From a virus (lineage: Duplodnaviria; Heunggongvirae; Uroviricota; Caudoviricetes), in the IMG/VR virus record IMGVR_UViG_2711768076_000018: DNA of 15,816 bases. The stretch is one strand, 5' to 3'. The notes beneath the pieces were generated by a model. The model did no database searches. It had not been told where the DNA came from and saw nothing but the letters and a program-made list of their open reading frames with translations. Each line of letters opens with the position of its first letter. The first letter of the stretch is position 1. Positions 1-15,816 of this stretch are shown here, one piece after another. Both the position numbers and the translations under genes were made by a program.

Positions 1-1236
1 ATGATTACACATTTCCGTCAAGCCATAGAAGAAACGCTACCCTGGCTCTCCTCTTTTGGCGCTGACCCAGCGGGTGGGATGACCCGTTTACTTTATTCGC
101 CGGAATGGCTGGAAACCCAGCAGCAATTTAAAAAAAGAATGGCAGCAAGCGGGCTGGAAACACGTTTCGATGAAGTGGGGAATTTATACGGTCGCCTGAG
201 TGGCACCGAATATCCACAGGAAGTGGTTCTGAGCGGTTCGCATATCGATACCGTGGTTAACGGCGGTAACCTCGACGGGCAATTCGGCGCGCTGGCGGCG
301 TGGCTGGCAATTGACTGGTTGAAAACGCAATACGGCGCGCCGTTACGTACGGTCGAAGTGGTGGCGATGGCAGAAGAAGAAGGCAGCCGCTTCCCGTATG
401 TCTTCTGGGGCAGTAAAAATATCTTTGGGCTGGCGAACCCTGACGACGTGCGGAATATCTGTGATGCCAAAGGAAATAGTTTTGTCGATGCGATGAAGGC
501 TTGCGGATTTACTCTGCCGAACGCCCCACTAACTCCGCGTCAGGATATTAAAGCCTTTGTTGAACTGCATATTGAACAGGGCTGTGTGCTGGAAAGTAAT
601 GGTCAATCAATTGGCGTGGTGAATGCAATTGTCGGGCAGCGTCGCTATACGGTGACGCTGAACGGCGAATCAAACCATGCAGGCACCACGCCGATGGGTT
701 ATCGTCGTGATACGGTTTACGCTTTCAGTCGCATTTGCCATCAGTCGATCGAAAAAGCGAAAAAGATGGGCGATCCGCTGGTTCTGACCTTTGGCAAAGT
801 AGAGCCGCGTCCGAATACGGTGAATGTGGTACCGGGTAAAACCACGTTCACCATTGATTGTCGTCATACCGACGCTGCCGTGCTGCGCGATTTCACCCAA
901 CAGTTAGAAAACGACATGCGGGCGATTTGCGATGAAATGGACATTGGTATTGATATCGATTTATGGATGGACGAAGAACCCGTGCCGATGAATAAGGAGC
1001 TGGTCGCCACCCTGACAGAATTGTGTGAAAGTGAAAAACTGAATTACCGGGTGATGCACAGTGGTGCCGGGCACGACGCGCAAATTTTCGCGCCTCGCGT
1101 ACCAACCTGCATGATTTTCATTCCCAGCATCAATGGGATCAGCCATAACCCGGCGGAACGCACCAATATTACCGACCTTGCCGAAGGGGTCAAAACGTTG
1201 GCACTCATGCTTTATCAACTTGCCTGGCAGAAATAA
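1..1236 (+). CDS. allC: allantoate amidohydrolase (M20 peptidase family)
   Basis: 411-aa ORF starting at window position 1 (MITHFRQAIEETLPWLSSFG ... LYQLAWQK). Recognised from memory as enterobacterial AllC, essentially full length. ATG start, TAA stop at 1234-1236. Confidence 0.9.
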   Translation: MITHFRQAIEETLPWLSSFGADPAGGMTRLLYSPEWLETQQQFKKRMAASGLETRFDEVGNLYGRLSGTEYPQEVVLSGSHIDTVVNGGNLDGQFGALAAWLAIDWLKTQYGAPLRTVEVVAMAEEEGSRFPYVFWGSKNIFGLANPDDVRNICDAKGNSFVDAMKACGFTLPNAPLTPRQDIKAFVELHIEQGCVLESNGQSIGVVNAIVGQRRYTVTLNGESNHAGTTPMGYRRDTVYAFSRICHQSIEKAKKMGDPLVLTFGKVEPRPNTVNVVPGKTTFTIDCRHTDAAVLRDFTQQLENDMRAICDEMDIGIDIDLWMDEEPVPMNKELVATLTELCESEKLNYRVMHSGAGHDAQIFAPRVPTCMIFIPSINGISHNPAERTNITDLAEGVKTLALMLYQLAWQK

Positions 1237-1884: not shown

Positions 1885-2178
1885 TTACCGCCGCAACCGC
1901 TCCGGCTTCTTCCAGTGGTAAGTAATTTTTTCTTTCTCCTGGTACATCTCCACGCGGCGACGATATGACAACAACTCCAGAACTCTGGTGCGTATATTGC
2001 GTATATCCACGCCGTTAAGCTCGATACCGTCACGGCGCATCACCTCAGCCACCACACGCGCGTAATTTTTGGCTATCACGCTGTCCGGCTGCGTGGCCTC
2101 CTGTTTGCCTGCTTCCTGGCTGATTCCGGTAACGCGGCGGATTATTTTTAGTAGTTCGGTTTCGCTCATTCTCGTCAT
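1885..2178 (-). CDS. hypothetical protein (97 aa), last gene of packaging operon
   Basis: ATG at 2178 overlaps the TerL stop (ATGA overlap), suggesting translational coupling. No family recognised. Confidence 0.5.
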   Translation of the reverse strand: MTRMSETELLKIIRRVTGISQEAGKQEATQPDSVIAKNYARVVAEVMRRDGIELNGVDIRNIRTRVLELLSYRRRVEMYQEKEKITYHWKKPERLRR

Positions 2179-3836
2179 ACCCCATCAAACGCCGCAAGCC
2201 GCTCTTTGTGGCTGTCGCTCATATCAAATGCAAATTCCTCATGCTCTGCCTGGAATGTGCCAAACGCCATCAGCGCCGCAACGCTCGGGTCTATCTTGTT
2301 GGATGATTTTTTCTTGTTCGGCTTGATATTGGCGTTCGCGTCACTCTGCATCACAACATTACTCATTGACCAGGCCAGCACCGGATCGCCACGATGCACA
2401 ATCACCTTCCGGTTAACAAAAACTTCGAACGATTTCGCCGCCGGACTGAAACGAAGGTATGTTTGCGGGAACGGCTCCACCTCAAATCCTGCCCCCTGTA
2501 GCTGCGTCCTCAGGTGCGTGGCGTTCCATGTATCGAAGCCCACCAGCCTGATATTGAAATTCTCTGCATCCGCCATGATGTCATCACGGATACGGTCATA
2601 ATCAATGCAGTCACCCGGTGTTGTGCGTATCCAGCCCGCCTTTACCCACTGGCGATAGATGGCGCGGTTTTTATTGGCGGGGTTCTGTAGCTGAAATTCC
2701 GGCAGATAGTGACGGGAAACCAGCATAATCTTTTTACCGACCGGAAAGGCATAGCACACGCTGGAAATATCGCTGGTTGATGATAAGTCCAGCCCCGCGT
2801 AGCACTCCTGACCGTATAAATCCGCCTCCGCGAACGTTCCGGCGCACTCCGCCCATGCACCGTTACCCATCCACGGCGTAGCCCCCTGACACCAGATATT
2901 GAATCGCTTGGTGAGCATTTCCACCCACTGCGACGGAATACCCCGCGCTTTCTGGATGGTTGAGGCCAGTTTTTCACGATCGACGGAAACATCGATATTG
3001 GGATTCGCCTTTATCCACATCGCCGGATCGTCAACCTCGCTTTCATCATCCAGCTCGTAAATCAGCACGAACATGGATTCGTTCACCTCTTCACCATCCA
3101 GTATCTGGCAGCAATAGTCATAGTGTTGTTTACAGGCTGAAACAACGTTGCTCCCCGATGTGGTGATGGCAAATAACAGCCCCTCCGGACGCGCCCCCAT
3201 TCCCAGTTCAAGCGCGGAATAAACCCCGTTGTCAGGGTGCAGGTGATATTCATCCACAATGGCAAGACTCGGGTTTGTACCTTCAATGGTTGCCGCTTTT
3301 GCTGCCAGTGGCTTTAACAGGCTGTTGGTTTTCGGGTGTATCACCTTGTGTGCCTGAATATTTACCCGCTTTCGTAACGGTCGGGATAAAAGGCACATCT
3401 GACGCGCATCATCAAACACGATCCGCGCCTGATCACGACTCACGGCGGCGGTGTAAATATCCTGCTGCCCGTTTTCCATAACCAGAAACCAGTTAGCCAG
3501 GATAGCGGCGACCGTGGATTTGGCATTTTTTCGCGGCACTTCAATGAATGCGCTGGTGTATTTGCGCCGTCCGGTGGCCTTAACCTTAAAGCCCAGGATG
3601 CACGCAAAGGCGAACTGCTGCCACGGCTCCAGCTCAATGGGGCTACCGCGCATTGCGCCTTTTACGTGCGGACACACCCTGGAAAAGGCAATAAACCGCT
3701 CCACGACCTCCGGATCGAACGTGTAAAGGGGGTTTTCAAGGTCAGAAAAATACCGTTTAACGGCCTGTTTCAGTCGTTTACAGGCCGTAATTTTGCCGTT
3801 TTTTACGCCTTCTGCGTACTCATGCCAGGCGGTCAA
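2175..3836 (-). CDS. terL: terminase large subunit (HK97-like Terminase_1 family ATPase/nuclease)
   Basis: 553-aa ORF with typical large-terminase length and motifs. The ORF-track start at 3836 is a TTG codon preceded by GAGGA; no in-frame ATG lies nearby. Confidence 0.85.
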   Translation of the reverse strand: MTAWHEYAEGVKNGKITACKRLKQAVKRYFSDLENPLYTFDPEVVERFIAFSRVCPHVKGAMRGSPIELEPWQQFAFACILGFKVKATGRRKYTSAFIEVPRKNAKSTVAAILANWFLVMENGQQDIYTAAVSRDQARIVFDDARQMCLLSRPLRKRVNIQAHKVIHPKTNSLLKPLAAKAATIEGTNPSLAIVDEYHLHPDNGVYSALELGMGARPEGLLFAITTSGSNVVSACKQHYDYCCQILDGEEVNESMFVLIYELDDESEVDDPAMWIKANPNIDVSVDREKLASTIQKARGIPSQWVEMLTKRFNIWCQGATPWMGNGAWAECAGTFAEADLYGQECYAGLDLSSTSDISSVCYAFPVGKKIMLVSRHYLPEFQLQNPANKNRAIYRQWVKAGWIRTTPGDCIDYDRIRDDIMADAENFNIRLVGFDTWNATHLRTQLQGAGFEVEPFPQTYLRFSPAAKSFEVFVNRKVIVHRGDPVLAWSMSNVVMQSDANANIKPNKKKSSNKIDPSVAALMAFGTFQAEHEEFAFDMSDSHKERLAAFDGV

Positions 3837-4176
3837 GCTCGTCCTCTTCCTCTGTTTCCGGTGGATTTCTGCGGCGACTTACCGGGTCAAAACCCAGCAA
3901 AGAAGCCATTTTGATCATTATTCTTTCAGCGTCAGCCTTTGCGCTCAGGGCGGGGTTTCTGCTCTCGCTGCCCTGACTGTTAACAATGCTGAACCCGCGC
4001 GTGGCAAGGTCTTCGACGGCTTTGCGGTATATGGAGTAGTTAACGCAATACAGCTCCAGATTGCTCCAGTCGGCGGGAGTAAGGTCTTCCCGTCCGGAAA
4101 GCTGGCGCGATTTTTCCTTCCACTGCCTGACCGCGATTTCATCCAGGTAAGCGGGGGCTTTTGGTGGTCTTGCCAT
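3820..4176 (-). CDS. terS: terminase small subunit (P27-like family)
   Basis: The C-terminal 119 aa (MARPPKAPAYLDEIAVRQW ...) look like a small terminase. The 47 codons upstream to the ORF-track start (4317) have odd composition and rare codons, so ATG 4176 is preferred. Confidence 0.65.
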   Translation of the reverse strand: MARPPKAPAYLDEIAVRQWKEKSRQLSGREDLTPADWSNLELYCVNYSIYRKAVEDLATRGFSIVNSQGSESRNPALSAKADAERIMIKMASLLGFDPVSRRRNPPETEEEDELDRLA

Positions 4177-4464
4177 GTTCTTTTTTCGCCCAATTATTTT
4201 CAAAAAAATTCCCGTGCACAAAAATTTGAGGAGGCGGTCGGTGTCCGGCAGGGACGGTTTCGTCCTGAAAACCACCCCCACCCCCTCTGACGGCCTCACC
4301 AGCGATTGCGAAAACATTCCATGACCTCGCGGTCACGGTCGGTTAATTGCTTCGCTGTGGTGCGTTCTGTGCGCCCTGTCCTGTTGGCTTTGTGCCCTGT
4401 CTCCTGTGTCTTCCATAAGTCACGCTGCCTTATCAGTCCACGTATCAGCCTGGTTTGCTCCTGT
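4177..4464. other. HNH-TerS intergenic region, candidate cos/packaging site
   Basis: About 290 bp gap containing hairpin GGACGgtttCGTCC (4251-4264) and C-tract CCACCCCCACCCCCTC (about 4272-4287). In HK97-type cos phages the cos site lies between the HNH gene and terS. Confidence 0.3.
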
Positions 4465-4475
4465 TCAGTCATCAT
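4296..4475 (-). CDS. possible small basic protein (about 59 aa) overlapping the HNH 3' end
   Basis: In-frame ATGs at 4481/4475/4472 overlap the last HNH codons (MMTEQEQTRLIRGLIRQRDLWK ...). The SD is weak, so this is speculative. Confidence 0.25.
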   Translation of the reverse strand: MMTEQEQTRLIRGLIRQRDLWKTQETGHKANRTGRTERTTAKQLTDRDREVMECFRNRW

Positions 4476-4905
4476 CGCCATACATCCAGTCGTTACGGTG
4501 TGCTGCCCGTTCTTCCTGTTCGCGATACATGCCCGCCTTACGGTTCGCTTTCGTGGCTGGATCTTCCCGTGTCGTCTTACGGTTGTGGCACGTCTGGCAC
4601 AATGCCTGGTGGTTCCACTCAGGCCAGAAGAGAACATCACCGCCGCCATTGATGGGGATGATGTGATCCACCACAAGAGCTGGCGTATAAATCCCCTTAG
4701 CCAGACAACGCACGCATAACGGGTTTTTGCTCAGGTACAGGGCGCGGTATTTGTCCCACTGTCGGGAATACCCGCGCGCGCGGCGGTGTCCCCGTCTGGC
4801 ATCCTCTGCACGCCATACAGCCCGTCTGTGCTCTTCACACTTGCCGGACTTCACGCGCTTATTACAGCCCGGCTCAGTGCATCGCCTTAATGGTTGCCAC
4901 GGCAT
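4465..4905 (-). CDS. HNH endonuclease (terminase-associated)
   Basis: 146 aa with Cys-rich N-terminus and an HNH motif (DHIIP ... NHQALCQTCHNRKT). ATG 4905 overlaps the stop of the upstream gene (ATGA). Confidence 0.85.
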   Translation of the reverse strand: MPWQPLRRCTEPGCNKRVKSGKCEEHRRAVWRAEDARRGHRRARGYSRQWDKYRALYLSKNPLCVRCLAKGIYTPALVVDHIIPINGGGDVLFWPEWNHQALCQTCHNRKTTREDPATKANRKAGMYREQEERAAHRNDWMYGDDD

Positions 4906-5207
4906 CAGTACACCCCCACATCACGATAAACCGACCAGAGCGCAGAAATAGCCATAGGCAGTTCAGACTGCTCCACTGGTGAAACTGCTTCCCTGTTCTC
5001 GTACAGGAAAGCGATGTACATCAGGCAACCAACACGCATTGCCGGGGTAAATTCCAGCCCGTCTTCAAAACGTTTCCCGATATGCTTCTGGCAGGCTTCC
5101 AGCGCCGCATCGGTATACATTTTCAGAAGTTCGCCTTCACCGGATAAATCATCATCAAGTCGAAGATGTGCCCTGACTTCATCAGGTGTAATTCTGGCTT
5201 CACTCAT
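4905..5207 (-). CDS. head-tail connector / DNA-packaging protein, gp6-like
   Basis: About 100 aa from ATG 5207 (MSEARITPDEV ...) with a strong SD (AGGGAG) just after the portal stop. The ORF-track start at 5270 is GTG and less likely. Confidence 0.65.
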   Translation of the reverse strand: MSEARITPDEVRAHLRLDDDLSGEGELLKMYTDAALEACQKHIGKRFEDGLEFTPAMRVGCLMYIAFLYENREAVSPVEQSELPMAISALWSVYRDVGVY

Positions 5208-6414
5208 CTTTTCTCCCTTTAATTTCCACAGTCTGTTTCCATGCCTGGCTGAACTCATCACCACCTTCACGCGGCGGCATACCCTCGCGTTCGCGAGCTT
5301 CGTTCGGATTCATGATCCCGCTCTTAATCCCTTTCTCATACGTGGCATAACGTTCGGTGGGTGTGGCGCGCAGTAAATCGGCTGAATCAAACTCAACCAG
5401 ATAACGGGTACCAGGTACGGGAGAAGTCACCAGCAAAGCGGCCTTGATTTGCTGTTCGAAGTTCGCCAGCCACGGGCGCATTGTCATGGTCAGAAATGCG
5501 CGGCTCGCCTCACTGAAATTGCTGTAGGTGCTGTTGCTGTATTCCTGAAGAAAAATCGGCGACACGTTGAACATCCTGGCGATGTCTTCAATGGAGAAGC
5601 GACGGGAGGCCAGCCATTCCGCATCCTGGTTACTCATCCCCAGCTGCCTGTAATCCATGCCCCCTTCAAGGATTGGCGTTTTTCCGGCATTTTTCGCCCC
5701 CTTGTAGCGTTCCAGTGCGTCTAATGCCTGTTTACCTTTCACGCCGTCCAGCCATTCACCTGACGTGATAATCCCTGCCGCCATCATGCCATCTTTCATA
5801 ATGCTGGCTCCGTGACGCTGTTGAGCAAGGCCAAGCCCCAGCGCCTCACGGCAAATCGTGACGGGGGAACGCCCCAGAAAGCCATCATCCGAGGCATAGC
5901 GGAGATGCAGAACTTCTTCCTGTAAATACGTGCGCACCGTTCCTGTACAGGGTTCGGTGATGGTATAGCGGTATTTGTGTGTGCCTGTGCGTTCCGGTAC
6001 AACACACCCCGGCGCATAAGGATGAAGTGATTTTGGCTGCCCGTCCCGCCCCCACTCAATAACCGCATAGGCGTTACCGTTCAGCAGGCAGTGACGCATC
6101 ATTGTGCGTTTAAACTGGTAAGGTGTCAGGCACGAATTAGGCTGCTCATTCAGCAGAATATCTACCGGGTGACTGTCCAGCCATTCCCGCGCCTCTCTGC
6201 CCTTATCATTGCGTACCAGATACAGGTAACACGGCATCGTGGCCACCGCCTCAGCGATGACAGAAACCGCGTTCATCACAGCAGGCAATGATTCAGCCGT
6301 CCCGGCAGAAACATATTCTCCGGATCCGGTATTTGGTACACCAGACAACGCCAGAAAATCATCAATGGACAGGTTACGCAGATCGCTTTTTTTACGACTA
6401 AAAGGCCACCACAT
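5200..6414 (-). CDS. portal protein (HK97 family)
   Basis: About 404 aa from ATG 6414 (MWWPFSRKK ...), 1 nt after the protease stop and preceded by a GGGGG SD. The ORF-track start at 6504 is TTG. Size and composition fit a portal. Confidence 0.85.
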   Translation of the reverse strand: MWWPFSRKKSDLRNLSIDDFLALSGVPNTGSGEYVSAGTAESLPAVMNAVSVIAEAVATMPCYLYLVRNDKGREAREWLDSHPVDILLNEQPNSCLTPYQFKRTMMRHCLLNGNAYAVIEWGRDGQPKSLHPYAPGCVVPERTGTHKYRYTITEPCTGTVRTYLQEEVLHLRYASDDGFLGRSPVTICREALGLGLAQQRHGASIMKDGMMAAGIITSGEWLDGVKGKQALDALERYKGAKNAGKTPILEGGMDYRQLGMSNQDAEWLASRRFSIEDIARMFNVSPIFLQEYSNSTYSNFSEASRAFLTMTMRPWLANFEQQIKAALLVTSPVPGTRYLVEFDSADLLRATPTERYATYEKGIKSGIMNPNEAREREGMPPREGGDEFSQAWKQTVEIKGRKDE

Positions 6415-6415
6415 A

Positions 6416-6976
6416 TCACACCCCCGCCAGTTCAGCCCAGCGATGACGATTATTTCCTGCCGGGCGTAATTCAGGGTACTGTGCAAACAACGAACGGTGG
6501 GCAATCTCCACGCCGGATTCGGGATAAGCAGGCATCGATGTTATCGTGATTTCACGGAGTTCTGCTGCGGTTACAGTACGCAGATACGGTTTTTGCGCGA
6601 TATTCCACTCCTCGCATAATGCGCGAAAGCCAAAGCTCATTCCTGTAATATCGCCACGTTCCACCAGCGTAAGCACATCTTTTCCAAGCTGGGTATTTGG
6701 CGGTGTCAGTTCAAAACGTAGCCCGGTGTTATCCTCAGTCAGTACCAGTGAGCCGGATTTGGTACGCCCCAGCAGTTGGGTATAGTCATGCTCATACAGA
6801 CAGCGCACATCATTACCTGCCGCCAGATAGTCAGCAAAAGCCCCCGGCGTGAACTGTTCGCGAAACTCGTCCCAGATAATTTCTGAAAGGCTGTTCCAGC
6901 GAACGGCATAACCCACCAGTTTTTTATCGCTGGCGGTCAGTTCAGATGTACGGATTTCAAAATCGGTGTTTTTCAT
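6416..6976 (-). CDS. prohead maturation protease (HK97 family)
   Basis: 186 aa from ATG 6976 (MKNTDFEIRTSEL ...) with GGAG SD. Conserved GMSFGF-type motif region. The ORF-track N-terminal extension to 7201 overlaps the capsid gene and is unlikely. Confidence 0.85.
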   Translation of the reverse strand: MKNTDFEIRTSELTASDKKLVGYAVRWNSLSEIIWDEFREQFTPGAFADYLAAGNDVRCLYEHDYTQLLGRTKSGSLVLTEDNTGLRFELTPPNTQLGKDVLTLVERGDITGMSFGFRALCEEWNIAQKPYLRTVTAAELREITITSMPAYPESGVEIAHRSLFAQYPELRPAGNNRHRWAELAGV

Positions 6977-6996
6977 CGGTGTACTCCATAAAGCTG

Positions 6997-7020
6997 AAAA
7001 AGGAGGCCGAAGCCCCCTTT
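6997..7020 (-). terminator. intrinsic terminator/attenuator immediately after the capsid gene
   Basis: Minus-strand RNA reads AAAGGGGGC-UUCG-GCCUCCUUUUU: a GC stem with a UUCG tetraloop and a U5 tract, 6 nt downstream of the capsid stop and upstream of the protease SD. Confidence 0.6.
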
Positions 7021-7025
7021 GCTCA

Positions 7026-8171
7026 TTACTTGCCAGCCTGAATTTCCAGAATCTTGATGGCGTTCGAATCCACCACACCACCGCCCAGATATTTCTGGGT
7101 ATAGATGTTAATGAATCCAGGCTCGCTGAAATCCGGACGGGTACGCGTACCGGTTTTATGGTCAACGATGAAATAACCGCGCTTAAAGTCACCGACTGCA
7201 ATCACACCGTCCGGCATAAATTCCAGATATTCAACCGGAAGCCCCAGCAGAGAATCAGGATCACCAGCCTGTAAACGATCGCGCCAGATGTAATCACCAG
7301 TGGCATTTTTCAGTTTTTGTGCGGAGGCGGCTGTATTTGAGTTCATCACCCATACAGCTTTTTTGCGGTACTTATTGCGCAGCGTAAATTTCAGGTCAAT
7401 CAGCATATCGGCGCTGAGACTGCCAGTCACTTTTTTCGTCTGGAGCGTACCGAAAGGACGGGTTTTGTCATTATCCGTAGTGCGCGGGAAAGTCAGGAAA
7501 CCTTTGGCTTTTTTCTCGCCATCACCGGAAACCAGATCCGTTTCTTCGGTATCAACGAAAGTGTCGCCAATTTCAGAAGATAACCAGCCCATAATATCGA
7601 CTTCGGAAAAATCGATAATTTCCTGAGTGGTTTTCGGGTAAGCGTAGATCGGATACAGGCGGATACTGACTTCATTCAGTTTTGGGGTTGCCGTCTGGTT
7701 ACGTGCCGCACCTTCTTCGCCGTGTCCCACGACCGCCCCCCCGGCAGAAACCAGTTGCTTAAATTCATTACTGTGAATGGTTTTAACAGTACAGATTTTA
7801 CGCATCACCGACTCATCAGAAAGCTGACGCATAATTTCTCTGTTCAGTTCCGGGATAACCGTATAACCACCATCAGCCGGAACACTGCCGGACAGGTTGC
7901 GGGTTTCCCCGGTCAGAATGTAAGAGCGTAGCTCATTTTTGGTGATTTTATCTTCGACGGGAACACCAGGCTGGTTACGTTCTTCATCAGCCACAGACTC
8001 GAGGCGGGAAATTTCTGTGTCGAGGGAATCGGCTTTTGCACGCAGTTCATCAAACTGTTTGCCTTCGTCATCGGTTAGACTGCGGTTTTCACTGTCGGCT
8101 TTTTCCAGCAGGGATCGCATCTGGTTTTTCAGGGCGGTTTTTTGCTGGCGGAGTTCGATTAATTTCTTCAT
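7026..8171 (-). CDS. major capsid protein (HK97 fold) with N-terminal coiled-coil delta domain
   Basis: 381 aa, ATG at 8171. The N-terminal 60 aa are coiled-coil-like (MKKLIELRQQKTALKNQ ...), followed by a capsid-shell domain with HK97-like C-terminal motifs. Confidence 0.9.
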   Translation of the reverse strand: MKKLIELRQQKTALKNQMRSLLEKADSENRSLTDDEGKQFDELRAKADSLDTEISRLESVADEERNQPGVPVEDKITKNELRSYILTGETRNLSGSVPADGGYTVIPELNREIMRQLSDESVMRKICTVKTIHSNEFKQLVSAGGAVVGHGEEGAARNQTATPKLNEVSIRLYPIYAYPKTTQEIIDFSEVDIMGWLSSEIGDTFVDTEETDLVSGDGEKKAKGFLTFPRTTDNDKTRPFGTLQTKKVTGSLSADMLIDLKFTLRNKYRKKAVWVMNSNTAASAQKLKNATGDYIWRDRLQAGDPDSLLGLPVEYLEFMPDGVIAVGDFKRGYFIVDHKTGTRTRPDFSEPGFINIYTQKYLGGGVVDSNAIKILEIQAGK

Positions 8172-8354
8172 GAAGGTTTTCTCGCATTGGTTAAGATTCA
8201 GGACGTGAAACCAACACGGGGGGAGCGCCGCCCGACACTCTCGGCATCTCGCAGATCAACCCGGCATCGCGCAGGGGGTCAGGCGGCATTGTGGCGGCTC
8301 ACGTCTGAGTGCCACACGCCAACATATACATAAAAATCAGTATGTAAACATCAA

Positions 8355-8392
8355 CCAGAATCACCGAACAACCTGGAACAACCACGAACAAA
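8355..8392 (-). promoter_or_regulatory. three 10-bp-phased TTGTTC repeats upstream of the capsid operon (candidate activator site)
   Basis: Plus-strand GAACAA at 8366, 8376 and 8386. On the minus strand this reads TTGTTCGTGGTTGTTCCAGGTTGTTCGG. The 18-mer TTGTTCGTGGTTGTTCCA is identical to 14651-14668. Confidence 0.5.
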
Positions 8393-8407
8393 TAATTTAC
8401 AAAACCT

Positions 8408-8440
8408 GAAAAAAGGCCCGGAAAAAATCCGGGCCTTTAT
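8408..8440 (-). terminator. intrinsic terminator after the replication/ProQ operon (bidirectional-capable)
   Basis: GGCCCGGA-loop-TCCGGGCC hairpin. The minus-strand RNA has a U6 tract after the stem. Lies just 3' of the 82-aa ORF and about 240 bp upstream of the capsid start. Confidence 0.7.
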
Positions 8441-8444
8441 CGCT

Positions 8445-8693
8445 TTATTGTTTCACTGGCTCCCGCATTCTGCGTCTTATTTTCCACAAATATTCGATCA
8501 TCGCTTCCACCTGCTCACGGTTGGTTGCGAAAATTTCCCCGGTCAGTGAGCTACGCAGAAAATCATGATGATCCACAAAAAATAACGCATCGGAAGAAAG
8601 CAACCGACGATATTTTTTTGCTGTCGTGGTTTCCAGATCATCAAAACCATGAAGCTTTTTATGTTGCTGAACTTCTTCAAATGTCACTGGCAT
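8445..8693 (-). CDS. hypothetical protein (82 aa)
   Basis: ATG at 8693 overlaps the end of the ProQ/FinO gene by 10 nt. No family recognised. Confidence 0.5.
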   Translation of the reverse strand: MPVTFEEVQQHKKLHGFDDLETTTAKKYRRLLSSDALFFVDHHDFLRSSLTGEIFATNREQVEAMIEYLWKIRRRMREPVKQ

Positions 8694-9214
8694 GTATCCC
8701 CCTTTGCTGCCCGGCGCTGGCGCTTGTGCTTCTCATTCAGCACCATCAGCCGTGTTTCTGCCTCCTGCTGTTCCTGTGGTGTCACTTCCCCACATGGCTG
8801 GCCTTTCAGGTCGTAACGTGCGCCACCAGCTATCAGGGCGCGGTAATAGCGCGGAGACTGCGCATAGGATGCCAGCGTCGCACGTAATACCCCCGGCCCG
8901 AATGCCAGCCCCCTGACGGCGATATCCTGCATCAGGTCGTCGAATATCCCCACCTTAAGCGGCTTCGGTGCTTTATGGCTGAATAAGTCAGGCCACATCT
9001 CAGTGAGGCGGTTAACGCGTCGGCGGTTTTTGCGCTGCCTTTTGGTCATATGCTGCCACGGTGTCGCCCCTGTGGGCTTCTGCTGTGCGTTCTGATTGCC
9101 GGGTATCACTTTATGCGCCGATGTGGTTTTATCCTGCTCTTGCGCCGCCTGCGTCGTTTTCTGCGGCGTGCCGTAAATGCCTTTCGGCTTCCGGTTAATG
9201 GTCAGCGTTGTCAT
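8684..9214 (-). CDS. ProQ/FinO-domain RNA-binding protein
   Basis: 176 aa. The segment PLKVGIFDDLMQDI ... LRATLASYAQSPRYYRALIAGGARYDLKGQPCGEVTPQEQ matches the ProQ N-terminal FinO-like domain from memory (PLKIGIFQDL ... [22 protein letters not shown]). Basic low-complexity N-terminus. ATG 9214 with GGGGAAGG SD. Confidence 0.75.
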   Translation of the reverse strand: MTTLTINRKPKGIYGTPQKTTQAAQEQDKTTSAHKVIPGNQNAQQKPTGATPWQHMTKRQRKNRRRVNRLTEMWPDLFSHKAPKPLKVGIFDDLMQDIAVRGLAFGPGVLRATLASYAQSPRYYRALIAGGARYDLKGQPCGEVTPQEQQEAETRLMVLNEKHKRQRRAAKGDTCQ

Positions 9215-9250: not shown

Positions 9251-9676
9251 TTAAAACGGTATGTTATCCCCGTACGGGTCATCGTGCTGGCTTGTCTGTT
9301 GTTTTGCCCTGTTCAGTGCGTCAGTGGCCTGGCCCTGTTGACCTTTTTTGCCGCCCGGTCGCGCCGTTCGCGCACTGATTACGCTGTCTGCAATAACCTG
9401 CCAGCCCTGCCGCGTTTCCCCGTTCTGGCCTGTCCACTGGCTCACCTGCATGTTACCCGCCACGCTCACCAGTTCGCCTTTGTGGTGTTTTGCCAGTGCG
9501 TCGGCCTGTCTGCCAAACGCCAGGACAGATAACCACATCGTCGCCGTTCCGTCATCTGCCTGGCTGCACGGCAGGGGAACCGCCATACTCGCCATCGCCA
9601 TTTGTGTCCCTTTGCTGGTGGTCTTTAACTGCGGGTCAGCCACCAGCCGCCCGTAAGCCGCTATCTGTGCTGTCAT
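9251..9676 (-). CDS. ssb: single-stranded DNA-binding protein
   Basis: 141 aa with an OB-fold N-terminus (YGRLVADPQLKTTSKG ...), a Gly/Gln-rich linker and an acidic tip DDPYGDNIPF (compare DDDIPF in E. coli SSB). ATG 9676 overlaps the upstream stop. Confidence 0.85.
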   Translation of the reverse strand: MTAQIAAYGRLVADPQLKTTSKGTQMAMASMAVPLPCSQADDGTATMWLSVLAFGRQADALAKHHKGELVSVAGNMQVSQWTGQNGETRQGWQVIADSVISARTARPGGKKGQQGQATDALNRAKQQTSQHDDPYGDNIPF

Positions 9677-10205: not shown

Positions 10206-12020
10206 TTAATTTTTGCTGTCGTCATTTGTGACCGATGCACATGATGGCATCCAGTCTTCTGAATCCTCTGTCAGTGTCACATTTGAACGCAAACCGTGCT
10301 TCGTTTTCCGTTTTATATACTCCCTGCCATATTCCGCCATTGCCCCCGGCATATCTTTACCGAAGCGCGTCAGTGTTACAGGTTTACCGAATCCGTGTGC
10401 CCTCATATATGCCAGATAGGCGTGATAAAGATACCTGCGCGGACTGAACGGAATAATTTCGGCATTACCCACTAACAGACCATCACACATTACCGACGAC
10501 ATGAGATAGCCACAGAAGTCCACCAGCGAATCGCCCTCGCGTTTTATCACCAGAGCTTCTTCTGATTTCTGCTGCTCATACAGCAGGCGTTTAGCTTCGT
10601 CCTGGTCAGAAAAACGAGTAAGCAGATGGCGAATCACAACCGCCAGCTCTCCTTCTATTTTTTCTGCCAGCATGGGGTCGCGCTCGTTCTCCGGTACAAC
10701 CTCCGAAAAATTGAATATCACCCGACGACGTGAGATCCCCCCGCTGCGGTCACTGAATGACATGGCGTTATTGTTCACCGCCAGCACGACCGCCTGAATG
10801 CGTGTTGAGTAGGGGGCTTTATGCTTCGGGTCGATTGCCACCTTGTCACCGCCTGTAATAGCCTTAATTCCTGCGCCATCACCAGCGTAGCGGGTCATAT
10901 CCGGCATGATAATCAGCGAAAAGCCAACCACTAACGCGCGTTCCCTTGCATCTTCCAGCGCCTTCATGCTTGCCGATACTGTGTTGGCCTTACCCGCCAG
11001 CATGGTGCAAATCTCCGCCATCACGCTTTTACCACTTCCCCCTGGACCTGTTACCTCAATGAATAACTGCCAGTCGTACCGGTTCGCCAGCACCATGAAT
11101 AATGCAGCCAGCACGCGATCCGTCTTGCGGTCATTCTCTGCCACCGAGCAGCGTAACCACTTCCAGAAATTCGGCGCATGTGTTGCCAGCGTTTCCCCCT
11201 CTGCTGGTGGGCTGAAAGGTAATTCACTGGCAATTAACAACCAGTCGTTTTTGTTATGCTCCCGAAAATTACCTGTTCTGGTATCAAATACCCCGTTACT
11301 GAATCCAATCAGGTTACGGGCTGTATTCCCCATTACAGGCAAACTTAACTTCATGGTATCGACCGCCGATTTAATGGCGTTCTGCGAATAGCTGATCTCC
11401 GCATCAATGAAAATCTGCGCCATAGCACGCTGTAACTCTTTATCCTGAATCGGCTCCCATACAACGCCGTTGTAATGGTGAACAGTGTCAGAGTCGGCAT
11501 GAATCGCCAGTTCACCGCCATAATGTGCCAGGAGAACTTCGCCGCGCTGGCTTGCTCCCATCTGGTTAAGCGCCAGTGGTGCGGCGCTGTCTTCTGTTTT
11601 TTTCTTAACAGGAAGCTGAATCACCAGACCATCAGAAAGATTCTGGCGCTCACGGGCCAGATATTCGCGCCAGTTCTGCACCTCCTGGCCGTGCATACCC
11701 TCAGGATAAAAATTTGCATCCTGTACGCCTGCCGCCGCCAGCTTCTGACCAATCGCCTTTATCATTACTGGCGCAAGATATCCGGCCCTGAATATGCGCA
11801 CGGATTTTCTGCCTTCCGGCACAATTTGCAGCTTATCCAGTTCGGATAACTGCTGCTCCCCAAGCCACACAGGAGGCTCATTATCTCCGGCCATACGCGC
11901 GTCATGTTCCTGCCATTGTTTTGCGTGTGACCAGGCATCACTACCCGCAAAAATAATGACTTCTGTTTCTTTGTGTTTTATGCCGCGTGACTGCTGTTTT
12001 ACGTTCGGTGCCAGTTTCAT
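10206..12020 (-). CDS. primase/helicase replication initiator (P4-alpha-like, Walker A NTPase C-terminal domain)
   Basis: 604 aa with Walker A GPGGSGKS in the C-terminal half, of a size typical for satellite or plasmid primase-helicases. ATG 12020 overlaps the upstream stop (ATGA). Confidence 0.85.
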   Translation of the reverse strand: MKLAPNVKQQSRGIKHKETEVIIFAGSDAWSHAKQWQEHDARMAGDNEPPVWLGEQQLSELDKLQIVPEGRKSVRIFRAGYLAPVMIKAIGQKLAAAGVQDANFYPEGMHGQEVQNWREYLARERQNLSDGLVIQLPVKKKTEDSAAPLALNQMGASQRGEVLLAHYGGELAIHADSDTVHHYNGVVWEPIQDKELQRAMAQIFIDAEISYSQNAIKSAVDTMKLSLPVMGNTARNLIGFSNGVFDTRTGNFREHNKNDWLLIASELPFSPPAEGETLATHAPNFWKWLRCSVAENDRKTDRVLAALFMVLANRYDWQLFIEVTGPGGSGKSVMAEICTMLAGKANTVSASMKALEDARERALVVGFSLIIMPDMTRYAGDGAGIKAITGGDKVAIDPKHKAPYSTRIQAVVLAVNNNAMSFSDRSGGISRRRVIFNFSEVVPENERDPMLAEKIEGELAVVIRHLLTRFSDQDEAKRLLYEQQKSEEALVIKREGDSLVDFCGYLMSSVMCDGLLVGNAEIIPFSPRRYLYHAYLAYMRAHGFGKPVTLTRFGKDMPGAMAEYGREYIKRKTKHGLRSNVTLTEDSEDWMPSCASVTNDDSKN

Positions 12021-14178: not shown

Positions 14179-14367
14179 TTAGTGAACTGCCTCGCGGCTG
14201 TCCTTCCATGCCAGAACTTCGGATAAAGACCAGCCAACGGAACGACCGCCGAGTTTACGCCGTGATGGGAATTGTCCGGTCTTCTCCAGGCGATACCGAC
14301 ATGAGCGGCTCAGGCCTGTAAGTTGCTGACATTCTTTTTCACGTATAAAGCGATCTGTGCTTAACAC
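14179..14367 (-). CDS. alpA: AlpA-family (Xis-like winged-helix) transcriptional regulator
   Basis: 62 aa with the AlpA signature: a helix-turn-helix around TGLSRS and a downstream GWSLSEV motif (compare VGW in CP4-57 AlpA). GTG start at 14367 with a strong AAAGGGGGAA SD. Sits immediately downstream of int. Confidence 0.8.
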   Translation of the reverse strand: MLSTDRFIREKECQQLTGLSRSCRYRLEKTGQFPSRRKLGGRSVGWSLSEVLAWKDSREAVH

Positions 14368-14742: not shown

Positions 14743-15816
14743 TTATTTTCTTCTGGCTGCTGGTAGTGCGGTTACGTTTTCATGTGCTCCCGCCAGTATC
14801 CCTAACCGCTCCGTCCACATATCCAGCGCATTGCGTTTCGCATCCAGATAACGGGAGTGATTATAGACTCGTTGCATCCCTGGCATCTGGTGTCCTGTAA
14901 GCTGCTCCACGACATGCGGATCAACGCCTAAATCGTTCAGCATGGTTGTAAAGGTGCGCCGGATGTCATGCAGTGACCAGTGGGGGTGATTAAGCCTCCT
15001 GTGCGCTAATCTTCCATACTGCGATACGCTGGCCTCCTGTTTCACTTCCCCCAGCAATAAGCCCGTGTGCCTGTTCTGCTCCACCAGCTGCGTGATGAAC
15101 GGCAGTATTGCTTCCGGTATAGGCCGGAATATGGCTACCTTCGTTTTGCTGTGCTCCTTCGGAACGGTCCAGAGCATTTCGGTAAAATCCCACTCGCCGA
15201 TCTCCGATAACCTAAGTTCGACCGTCCGGCATCCGAACACAATCAGGAGGCGGATTAGCGCGATGTAGTAGGGGGAAAATATTTTTTTGTCCAGTGCCTG
15301 CAATAATTCGCCCAGCTCTTTATTGCTTAAGACACGTTCGCTTATATCCGGTTTTTTCCCAACGTCCGCTACGTTCAGATCATCGAGAACGTTACTGATT
15401 GCATAGCGCCGCCTCCGGCAGTACTTAAGCGCCTGTTTGCATGTCTGTAGCACGAATCCGGCAGTAACAGGTGTTCGCTTTGCCACCTGGTCAAAGCAGG
15501 CCAGCCAGTGCCGTAGCTCGCATTTATCCAGCGGCATAGCACCAATTTTGGTGATTATGTTTTTATTGATCCGGCTTTTCAGTGATTCGTAATCTGTGCG
15601 CTTTTCCTTTGCGTACGACTCAAGCCAATAGGTGAGCGCATCGCCAACCGTTACAGGCTTTAACGCTTCCTGCATGGTGTAATTCAGTTCATAGCGTGGA
15701 TTTTTCCCCTCAGCCAGCCATGCGCGACACTGGGCGGCTTTTTCCCTGGCTGCTTTCAGACTCAGATCGGGATAATTTCCCAGCTTAACGCGTTCAGGTT
15801 GTGTCCCTCTTCCCAT
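14743..15816 (-). CDS. int: tyrosine integrase (P4/CP4-57 type), 5'-partial
   Basis: 357 aa visible, with the C-terminal catalytic region (HDIRRTF ... YNHSRY). The region LGNYPDLSLKAAREKAAQCRAWLAEGKNP aligns, from memory, to around residues 55-85 of P4-type integrases, so about 45 N-terminal codons probably lie beyond the window. Confidence 0.85.
   Translation of the reverse strand: MGRGTQPERVKLGNYPDLSLKAAREKAAQCRAWLAEGKNPRYELNYTMQEALKPVTVGDALTYWLESYAKEKRTDYESLKSRINKNIITKIGAMPLDKCELRHWLACFDQVAKRTPVTAGFVLQTCKQALKYCRRRRYAISNVLDDLNVADVGKKPDISERVLSNKELGELLQALDKKIFSPYYIALIRLLIVFGCRTVELRLSEIGEWDFTEMLWTVPKEHSKTKVAIFRPIPEAILPFITQLVEQNRHTGLLLGEVKQEASVSQYGRLAHRRLNHPHWSLHDIRRTFTTMLNDLGVDPHVVEQLTGHQMPGMQRVYNHSRYLDAKRNALDMWTERLGILAGAHENVTALPAARRK

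Follow-up and report, generated by a model that had tools for sequence, protein, structure and literature searches.

The 15,816-nucleotide stretch of DNA analysed here (the window) is an E. coli capsid-forming PICI (cf-PICI) of the EcCIEDL933 kind, whose packaging operon opens with the major capsid gene, directly followed by a terminator-type hairpin. Comparison with relatives and phages indicates that this hairpin is inherited from HK97-type phages and is not specific to the satellite. It may plausibly favour capsid expression as a leaky terminator and/or an mRNA stabiliser.

The island and its capsid-first operon

The PICI backbone is present by family matches (int, alpA and a D5 primase), and every gene of the island is co-oriented, on the minus strand (Table 1). 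E. coli NCCP 13717 carries this island at 99.9% identity. The HK97-type head and packaging module is complete, with Pfam matches for capsid, protease, portal, connector, HNH, TerS and TerL, and no tail-family match was obtained among the island ORFs scanned. With the host M20 peptidase gene at 1-1236 and int at the opposite end, the island measures about 14-15 kb, its right-hand att site lying beyond the window. The upstream TTG at 7201, given as the protease start in the ORF list, was rejected; the gene begins at ATG 6976 instead. A second, strong terminator-like hairpin, which lies 7 nt past the stop of an 82-aa ORF (8445-8693), appears to mark the end of the accessory genes ahead of the packaging operon.

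Table 1. Features of the island and of its packaging operon in the window
Feature	Coordinates	Strand	Evidence
Tyrosine integrase, cut by window end	14743..15816	-	PF00589, Arm-DNA-bind_3, Phage_int_M
alpA, PICI master regulator / excisionase family	14179..14367	-	PF05930 Phage_AlpA, E 2.7e-18; phrog_2790
D5-type primase/helicase, island replication gene	10206..12020	-	Pox_D5, D5_N, DUF5906
ProQ/FinO-domain protein, immediately upstream of packaging operon	8684-9214		PF04352
Terminator-like hairpin, 11 bp, -20.3 kcal/mol, U-run	8412..8438	-	Hairpin enumeration
Promoter-like block upstream of capsid gene, family-conserved	8312..8404	-	Promoter scan; upstream-region alignment, 80 loci
-35 TTTACA; -10 TATGTT; conserved TTTTGTAAATTATTTGT box	8348-8343; 8326-8321; 8404-8388	-	
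Major capsid protein, HK97 family, first gene of operon	7026..8171	-	PF05065, E 8e-61
Terminator-type hairpin	6997..7020	-	Sequence, folds, covariance model R1, position shared with relatives
Protease Shine-Dalgarno GGAG, 7 nt before ATG, outside hairpin	6984..6987	-	Sequence
HK97-family prohead serine protease	6416..6976	-	Peptidase_S78, PF04586, E 4.5e-45
Portal	5200..6414	-	PF04860, E 2e-91; ATG 6414 one nt after protease stop (TGAtATG)
Head-tail adaptor/connector; start at internal ATG 5207 inferred	4905..5207	-	PF05135; phrog_40 head-tail adaptor Ad1
HNH endonuclease, HK97-type packaging system	4465..4905	-	PF01844
Small terminase subunit, exact start uncertain	3820..4317	-	PF05119 Terminase_4
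Large terminase subunit, last core gene of operon	2175..3836	-	TerL_ATPase, TerL_nuclease

The coordinates and Pfam matches bear out the order capsid-protease-portal that the sequence-only reading had proposed; in full, the window runs capsid, protease, portal, adaptor, HNH, TerS and TerL, as does the O157:H7 island. HK97-like phages normally run portal-protease-capsid, as that reading had also stated, and we saw this order in HK97 and in the nearest phages by capsid (24-40% identity). The HK97-fold capsid (PF05065), the S78 protease and the PF04860 portal are thus all found in the window, but not in the canonical order of the HK97 module. The rearranged order had been suspected to be a hallmark of the satellite lineage, and the comparison of related islands with phages agrees: it is kept in 80 of 80 related loci, that is, the related Enterobacterales loci fetched which extend far enough to include the downstream genes, and is absent from the nearest true phages. 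It is not new, having already been published as the conserved order of Proteobacterial cf-PICIs (Alqurainy et al., 10.1101/2022.09.08.507074).

The cf-PICI prototype EcCIEDL933 (CP-933C) has the same layout, with int, alpA, primase and SSB, then capsid-protease-portal-connector-HNH-TerS-TerL, all co-oriented and with no tail genes, and a hairpin follows the capsid gene in the O157:H7 island too. However, the window is only about 73% identical in DNA to the EDL933 type (74% for the capsid, 62% for the protease), has one connector gene instead of two, carries a ProQ/FinO-like protein instead of the PerC-like regulator, and is inserted beside an M20 peptidase gene rather than phoQ. Helper-phage induction, small T=4 capsids and transfer by helper tails have been described for EcCIEDL933 only (10.1101/2022.09.08.507074; 10.1101/2025.02.11.637232).

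Anatomy and conservation of the post-capsid hairpin

The capsid-protease gap, of 49 nt, is the sole sizeable intergenic gap of the 6-kb packaging operon, whose genes elsewhere overlap or are separated by 1 nt. Its RNA reads UAA / UGAGCA / AAGGGGGC UUCG GCCUCCUU / UUU CAGCUUUAU GGAG UACACCG / AUG, in which the hairpin described by the sequence-only reading, with a GC stem, a UUCG loop and five U, is seen 6 nt past the capsid stop and ahead of the protease GGAG. Positions 7012-7019 pair with 7000-7007 around the loop at 7008-7011, and the five-U run occupies 6997-7001. The core has six pairs (five G-C and one G.U), which A-U pairs lengthen to a stem of nine, and the protease ATG comes just 20 nt after the hairpin.

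Is this an intrinsic terminator? Its stem and loop are those of one, being GC-rich and within the ranges of 5-14 bp and 3-8 nt, with a folding energy of -13.3 to -13.9 kcal/mol (-13.9 for the centroid hairpin), and its terminator discriminant is +13.8 with an approximate d'Aubenton-Carafa formula. The U-tract, in which five U are followed by CAGCUUU (U at 5 of the first 8 positions), is shorter than the canonical ~7-9 nt. The folding energy of a 36-nt piece is -16.7 kcal/mol (z = -2.8), a value equalled by 3 of 200 shuffles; the 86-nt context, in which the signal is diluted by the flanks, does not reach significance (z = -0.57). The hairpin is absent from the list of a simple terminator scanner, likely because maximal stem extension consumes two or three of the U, and our own hairpin enumerator recovers it (9 bp, -13.3 kcal/mol, tail UUCAGCUU). 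In Rfam, no family matched at its gathering score, and the only matches were to generic terminator ends with E above 0.1. HK97-type cos sites lie near terS. We found nothing in support of a cos or pac role for the hairpin, and the cf-PICI papers give no cos position.

Among the relatives, a post-capsid hairpin of -9 kcal/mol or better occurs at the same position in 58 of 73 loci, and it is kept in about 80% of loci across capsid identities of 64-89%, over which the spacer and the loops have diverged. The 3.8 kb of capsid-protease intergenic sequence is about 23-fold richer in hairpins than the remainder of the operon (0.68 per kb, sense strand). The covariance model R1 finds one site per locus, directly after the capsid gene, and in the window it hits precisely the hairpin site (28.2 bits). 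Within the gap, only the G and C of the stem, the flanking A and U and the Shine-Dalgarno are conserved, the loops varying freely and the GGA of the protease Shine-Dalgarno being nearly invariant in the MAFFT whole-spacer alignment (A2). Since A2 sets 4-nt and 5-nt loops out of register, it is unusable for pair counts, which were taken from loop-anchored slices (A3) and from the covariance model. Pairing is kept in 98.6% of cells, with both sides changed in two of the seven pairs, and one pair changes stepwise from G-C in the family to G.U in the window and A-U in E. coli PEC209. Covariation is nevertheless weak, three of the seven pairs never varying, and hence it is not our main evidence. 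In Proteus, a different 11-bp stem occupies the same place.

The U-run after the GC core is of three or fewer in 33 of 62 relatives, which counts against a terminator, and the discriminant, again approximate, lies below zero in 27 of the 62. With a U-tract weak in about 40% of relatives, it is therefore the hairpin that is the better conserved of the two. The hairpin itself is missing in 11 loci, where the gaps measure 1-19 nt, that of L007 being 18 nt long. These clean losses fall into at least five groups of distinct sequence (L007/L015/L020/L046/L053; L032; L052; L063; L065/L080/L081), most with intact-looking genes. The six loci of the first two groups have a full-length gene set, the TerS match of L080 and L081 is shortened to 117 of 165 residues, and the other three are too short to judge. 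The element is therefore dispensable.

Post-capsid hairpins in canonical-order phages

The sequence-only reading had implied a tie between the hairpin and the rearranged gene order. The phages do not support it, since a hairpin also stands right after the capsid gene in HK97 and in 8 of 11 other phages of canonical order (YeP2, vB_EcoM-720R4, Kp4882-1, vB_PR5, Bcep176, Vibrio K303, Vibrio 104E43.1 and Lilbooboo). Klebsiella phage Kp4882-1 carries the same hairpin (GGGGC-UUCG-GCCCC), and non-homologous stems hold the same place in HK97, YeP2, vB_PR5, Bcep176, two Vibrio phages and a Streptomyces phage. Scanning viral contigs with the capsid of vB_EcoM-720R4 yielded nothing beyond copies of 99-100% identity. 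In HK97, record NC_002167 annotates a 'putative terminator' which, as in the window, is a GC hairpin with a 4-nt loop, placed 6 nt past the capsid (gp5) stop, followed by a U-run and just before the next gene start. The stems differ, GGGCGGG in HK97 against GGGGGC in the window, and so do the genes that follow, which are head-tail connectors and tail genes in HK97 and comparable phages but protease, portal and terminase in the window.

The occurrence of these hairpins in canonical-order phages argues that the element is ancestral and that it travelled with the capsid gene. As the gene order was already published and the hairpin appears to come from HK97-type phages, the finding is real but largely ordinary. 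The late operon of the lambdoid phage HK97 is read by a Q-modified, terminator-resistant polymerase, and the ancestral role of post-capsid hairpins may therefore not have been termination.

Possible roles of the hairpin in the satellite

The best joint explanation, to which we would give an even chance of being correct, is that the cf-PICI operon is expressed from the conserved promoter-like region and that the phage-inherited hairpin acts as a leaky terminator. The attenuator proposed by the sequence-only reading, giving much capsid relative to protease and portal, is thus a plausible reading of the hairpin. Transcription of the packaging operon would start near 8320-8350, and a fraction of the polymerases would stop at the hairpin, yielding a short capsid-only mRNA which the 3' hairpin would also shield from 3' exonucleases. 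The remaining polymerases would read through into the protease, portal, connector and terminase genes, whose products would be needed in far smaller amounts, a T=4 shell containing 12 copies of the portal and some 235 of the capsid protein. The cf-PICI capsid is of T=4 geometry, with 240 MCP positions (10.1101/2025.02.11.637232), and transfer of EcCIEDL933 needs all the packaging genes (10.1101/2022.09.08.507074). If the hairpin terminates, read-through is required, because only those 20 nt precede the protease ATG and the capsid gene contains no promoter-like site on this strand. Leaky terminators are known to balance gene expression in phages (PMC9163698), and the literature on measured post-capsid terminators or on cf-PICI transcription gives general support only. 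What the sequences show is the anatomy of the hairpin, its conserved position and its descent from phages; termination itself, its efficiency and its effect on stoichiometry are what we infer.

Comparable arrangements are known elsewhere. In the pap and fim pilin operons and in the Rhodobacter puf operon, the leading gene encodes the major structural subunit, and a stem-loop behind it leads to an abundant short mRNA; the design logic is the same as in the window, the genes and organisms are unrelated, and the analogy is functional only. The Tphi terminator of T7 is placed after gene 10. With Tphi and with the Pseudomonas phage LUZ7 (PMC9163698), the window shares a terminator-type hairpin in a polycistronic structural operon, after a very highly expressed gene and with obligatory read-through. 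However, termination was measured in T7 and LUZ7 whereas the window hairpin is predicted, and T7 uses its own RNA polymerase.

Must the hairpin terminate at all? It could be only a stabiliser of the mRNA 3' end or a processing boundary, with the polymerase made terminator-resistant (loaded with AlpA or a helper Q-type factor) or the U-tract being too weak; after downstream cleavage, the capsid segment would be protected from 3' exonucleases and the distal mRNA would decay. This would agree with a hairpin much better conserved than its U-tract, with the 27 of 62 relatives whose hairpins are not predicted terminators, and with the same element in HK97, whose late operon is antiterminated. Moreover, the island, with all its genes co-oriented, encodes AlpA, which in P. 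aeruginosa acts as a processive antiterminator and so overrides intrinsic terminators (PMC7969949, PMC9371919), and terminator hairpins raise upstream mRNA stability (PMC11696848). On the other hand, the window hairpin lies in a reasonable A-tract/U5 setting and scores positive as a terminator, our literature search found no paper tying PICI AlpA to antitermination, and no downstream RNase site was identified. We consider stabilisation alone rather unlikely. Conversely, a GC-rich stem, a UUCG loop and U5 could together make for strong termination, making the capsid gene a separate transcription unit and leaving the protease and the genes downstream to a promoter of their own. Such a promoter was rejected, there being 20 nt of room and no promoter match, and the scan of the minus strand from 8171 to 6976 found no promoter-like site. 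The hairpin-less relatives, whose genes are co-transcribed given their gaps of 1-19 nt, also speak against an efficient full terminator, which we regard as extremely improbable.

The hairpin might instead be a vestige that does little or nothing in the satellite, having come in with the capsid gene as the head module was taken over and reordered. Its place after the capsid genes of canonical-order phages, its repeated clean loss and the weak covariation would all suit such a relic, which we nonetheless think quite unlikely: the hairpin persists in most loci despite the diverged spacer and loops, it has undergone stepwise compensatory change within E. coli, in Proteus another, longer hairpin has taken its place, and hairpins are far denser there than in the rest of the operon. 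The ProQ/FinO family recognises terminator-type 3' hairpins, and a gene of this family (PF04352) stands immediately upstream of the operon; the hairpin could then be a site for an RNA-binding protein of this kind, modulating capsid mRNA stability or read-through. This is very unlikely, as none of the 80 other hairpin-bearing loci has the ProQ-like gene, which occupies a variable accessory slot (10.1101/2025.02.11.637232).

The leaky-terminator explanation has a bolder form, which we consider unlikely. The hairpin, moved with the capsid gene to the operon front, would be a one-element transcriptional switch setting the ~20:1 capsid:portal ratio of the T=4 shell, its read-through perhaps tuned by AlpA antitermination (as in Pseudomonas), by a helper factor or by an accessory ProQ/FinO-type RNA binder. 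It would then be a regulated checkpoint between shells and packaging machinery, to which the order reversal would be an adaptation.

In practice, the capsid-hairpin-protease signature is a marker for cf-PICI annotation, and the hairpin an obvious knob for engineering cf-PICI-based delivery particles; this value is modest. The gene order is published, and post-capsid terminators are familiar in HK97-like phages. For the biology of these satellites, if the hairpin attenuates transcription, it would give a simple account of how a 15-kb satellite obtains about 20 times more capsid than portal or terminase from one packaging operon, and a selective explanation for the reversed order of the head genes, which sets cf-PICIs apart from phages.

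Head-gene order and island architecture

The window has the architecture of a capsid-forming phage-inducible chromosomal island (cf-PICI), with all island genes on the minus strand and no tail genes among the island ORFs. Its gene order is identical to that of the O157:H7 island EcCIEDL933/CP-933C. Between portal and HNH the two differ, with one connector gene in the window (4905-5270, -) and two (head closure and connector) in the EDL933-type island (L001 7337-7968); the related loci include examples of each arrangement. Of 5426 complete E. coli genomes, 534 carry the capsid-protease-portal block; the matches fall into several identity bands, with O157:H7 in the one at ~73%.

Features of the window and the basis of their assignment
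Feature	Position	Strand	Basis or remark
Integrase	14743-15816	-	Pfam
AlpA	14179-14367	-	Pfam
D5-type primase/helicase	10206-12020	-	Pfam
SSB	9251-9676	-	Pfam
ProQ/FinO-domain protein	8684-9214	-	PF04352, E 1e-23
Strong terminator-like hairpin	8412-8438	-	hairpin enumeration; 11 bp, -20.3 kcal/mol, then U-run
Promoter-like -35/-10	8348/8321	-	inside block 8312-8404
HK97-family major capsid protein	7026-8171	-	Pfam
S78 prohead protease	6416-6976	-	Pfam
Portal	5200-6414	-	Pfam
Head-tail adaptor	about 4905-5207	-	Pfam
HNH endonuclease	4465-4905	-	Pfam
Small ORF phrog_3173	4296-4470	-	~57 aa, between HNH and TerS
TerS	3820-4317	-	Pfam
TerL	2175-3836	-	Pfam
Host M20 peptidase gene	1-1236	+	Pfam

The sequence-only reading had suggested that the order capsid, protease, portal marks the satellite lineage, and our comparison bears this out. 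Among 80 related loci fetched from species-representative Enterobacterales genomes (capsid identity 64-89%; genera including Citrobacter, Xenorhabdus, Photorhabdus, Proteus, Providencia, Erwinia, Serratia, Pantoea, Kosakonia and Pectobacterium), every locus of sufficient length runs capsid, protease, portal, connector, HNH, TerS, TerL. The bona fide phages nearest by capsid sequence, only 24-40% identical, and HK97 itself run TerS-TerL-portal-protease-capsid (order checked in vB_EcoM-720R4, YeP2, HK97, vB_PR5, K303, Javan107, Bcep176, 104E43.1, Lilbooboo, NatCom_19828 and Kp4882-1). The reversed order is thus a satellite hallmark, but it is already published for cf-PICIs of Proteobacteria (10.1101/2022.09.08.507074) and hence not new.

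The final ~5 kb of PQ569648 ('Klebsiella phage P12620-1', 106 kb; L004 9001-12022) are a block of capsid, protease and portal genes of the cf-PICI type, its capsid sharing 68% identity with that of the window; a chimeric assembly or co-packaged satellite DNA probably accounts for this record. The module is present in many copies in Xenorhabdus genomes (L007-L063), with five loci in X. innexi, five in X. anantnagensis and four in X. mauleonii; the capsid gene is interrupted in several copies (L026, L027, L034, L056, L058, L059) and in one from Shigella flexneri (L035). Inside the phrog_3173 ORF of the window, just 5' of the annotated TerS start, a GC hairpin (4319-4338, -; 8 bp, -12.8 kcal/mol, then AAUGUUUU) may belong to the cos region or act as a second regulatory hairpin.

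On the 5' side of the capsid gene, a block conserved in cf-PICIs of many genera (8312-8404, -) contains a TTTTGTAAATTATTTGT box, GTTGTTC-like repeats and the promoter-like -35/-10, and is probably the packaging-operon promoter with its activator site. The terminator-like hairpin that precedes it, 7 nt 3' of an 82-aa ORF (8445-8693, phrog_1957), forms the boundary between the accessory/replication region and the packaging operon; the latter therefore looks like its own transcription unit.

The post-capsid hairpin in satellites and phages

Since protease and portal are separated by 1 nt and all later junctions overlap, the 49-nt gap between capsid (stop TAA, 7028-7026) and protease (start ATG, 6976) is the sole true intergenic space of the operon. 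It reads UGAGCA-AAGGGGGC-UUCG-GCCUCCUU-UUUCAGCUUUAUGGAGUACACCG and holds a terminator-type hairpin (6997-7020, -) with a core of 6 bp (five G-C, one G.U), or 9 bp when A-U pairs are added, a UUCG loop and five U in a row; the protease GGAG lies outside the stem, 7 nt 5' of the AUG. The original description was accurate. In the centroid structure only the hairpin forms (-13.9 kcal/mol), and folding the 36-nt element gives -16.7 kcal/mol (z = -2.8). A consensus terminator scan of the window did not call it, apparently because a stem prolonged into the A-U pairs leaves fewer U for the tail; separate hairpin enumeration recovers it, and no Rfam family matches it.

The hairpin is a real conserved structure. 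Of 73 usable loci, 58 have a hairpin at least as stable as -9 kcal/mol in the gap between capsid and protease (3.8 kb when all gaps are summed), a ~23-fold enrichment over the 0.68 per kb seen on the sense strand of the remaining operon. A covariance model trained on 21 post-capsid sites gave essentially one match per locus, always directly 3' of the capsid gene, the window hairpin scoring 28.2 bits. The spacer alignment shows conservation of just the stem G and C, the A 5' and U 3' of the stem, and the GGA of the protease, while flanks and loops (UUCG, UGCG, UACG, ACAAC, AUCGC, GAAA, others) vary. Stem pairing is retained in 98.6% of cells, with modest covariation (three of seven pairs invariant, two changed on both sides). 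One position passes from G-C (family consensus) through G.U (window) to A-U in the 94% identical E. coli PEC209 island (L175 2093-2122, GGAGGC-UGCG-GCCUCC), a compensatory change made in steps within E. coli. In Proteus islands another hairpin takes this place (11 bp, U5-6). The hairpin is lost altogether in 11 loci, where the gaps measure 1-19 nt; six of these retain all genes at full length, the TerS match is shortened in two, and the other three are not long enough for a verdict.

The sequence-only reading needs correcting chiefly on one point: this hairpin is not satellite-specific, as 9 of 12 canonical-order phages also have one. The HK97 reference record marks positions 5192-5213 as a 'putative terminator', 6 nt 3' of the gp5 stop (GGGCGGG-GAAA-CCCGCCC-UUUU), with gp6 directly after. 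The others with a directly post-capsid hairpin are vB_EcoM-720R4, YeP2, vB_PR5, Bcep176, Vibrio K303 and 104E43.1, Streptomyces Lilbooboo and Klebsiella Kp4882-1; in Javan107, CJIE4-1 and NatCom_19828 no such hairpin is evident. Kp4882-1 has the canonical order and a capsid only 35-40% identical, yet shares the window's GGGGC-UUCG-GCCCC hairpin, 5 nt 3' of the capsid stop (L173 3401-3434). The structure was thus inherited from phages and did not arise in the satellites. Capsid gene and 3' hairpin accordingly behave as a single inherited unit, moved to the operon front in satellites.

Possible roles of the hairpin

How might the hairpin act? Any termination must be partial, because the downstream packaging genes are needed for cf-PICI transfer (10.1101/2022.09.08.507074), only 20 nt separate the hairpin from the protease ATG, and the promoter scan found no promoter-like site on the minus strand within the capsid gene. 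A full terminator with a separate promoter for the downstream genes is accordingly the least credible reading. The attenuator function first proposed is plausible, and we give an even chance to a leaky terminator that would also stabilise a short capsid mRNA.

Several observations lead us to retain two rivals. In 33 of 62 relatives the U-run 3' of the GC core has no more than three U, and a terminator discriminant is below zero in 27 of 62, mainly Xenorhabdus (rough figures, the discriminant being approximate); to these are added the 11 losses. The late operon of HK97, a lambdoid phage, is transcribed by antiterminated polymerase, which speaks for a role of the ancestral hairpin in RNA stability. 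The island AlpA is in the same family as a Pseudomonas processive antiterminator (PMC7969949, PMC9371919), which would favour bypass of the terminator; our literature search returned no paper tying AlpA antitermination to PICIs. We regard a hairpin that only stabilises RNA, or a terminator that is bypassed, as rather unlikely, and an evolutionary relic as improbable. That the hairpin binds an RNA-binding protein, for example the island's ProQ-like protein, is very improbable. Terminator-type 3' hairpins are targets of ProQ/FinO proteins, which makes a link conceivable; no ProQ/FinO homologue was found in 80 other cf-PICI loci. The gene itself lies immediately 5' of the packaging operon, in an accessory slot whose content varies.

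Leaky termination is documented phage practice (PMC9163698). The T=4 shell of cf-PICIs has 240 positions for capsid protein against 12 portal subunits (10.1101/2025.02.11.637232), and a leaky terminator, stopping part of transcription and stabilising the short capsid mRNA, would suit this demand.
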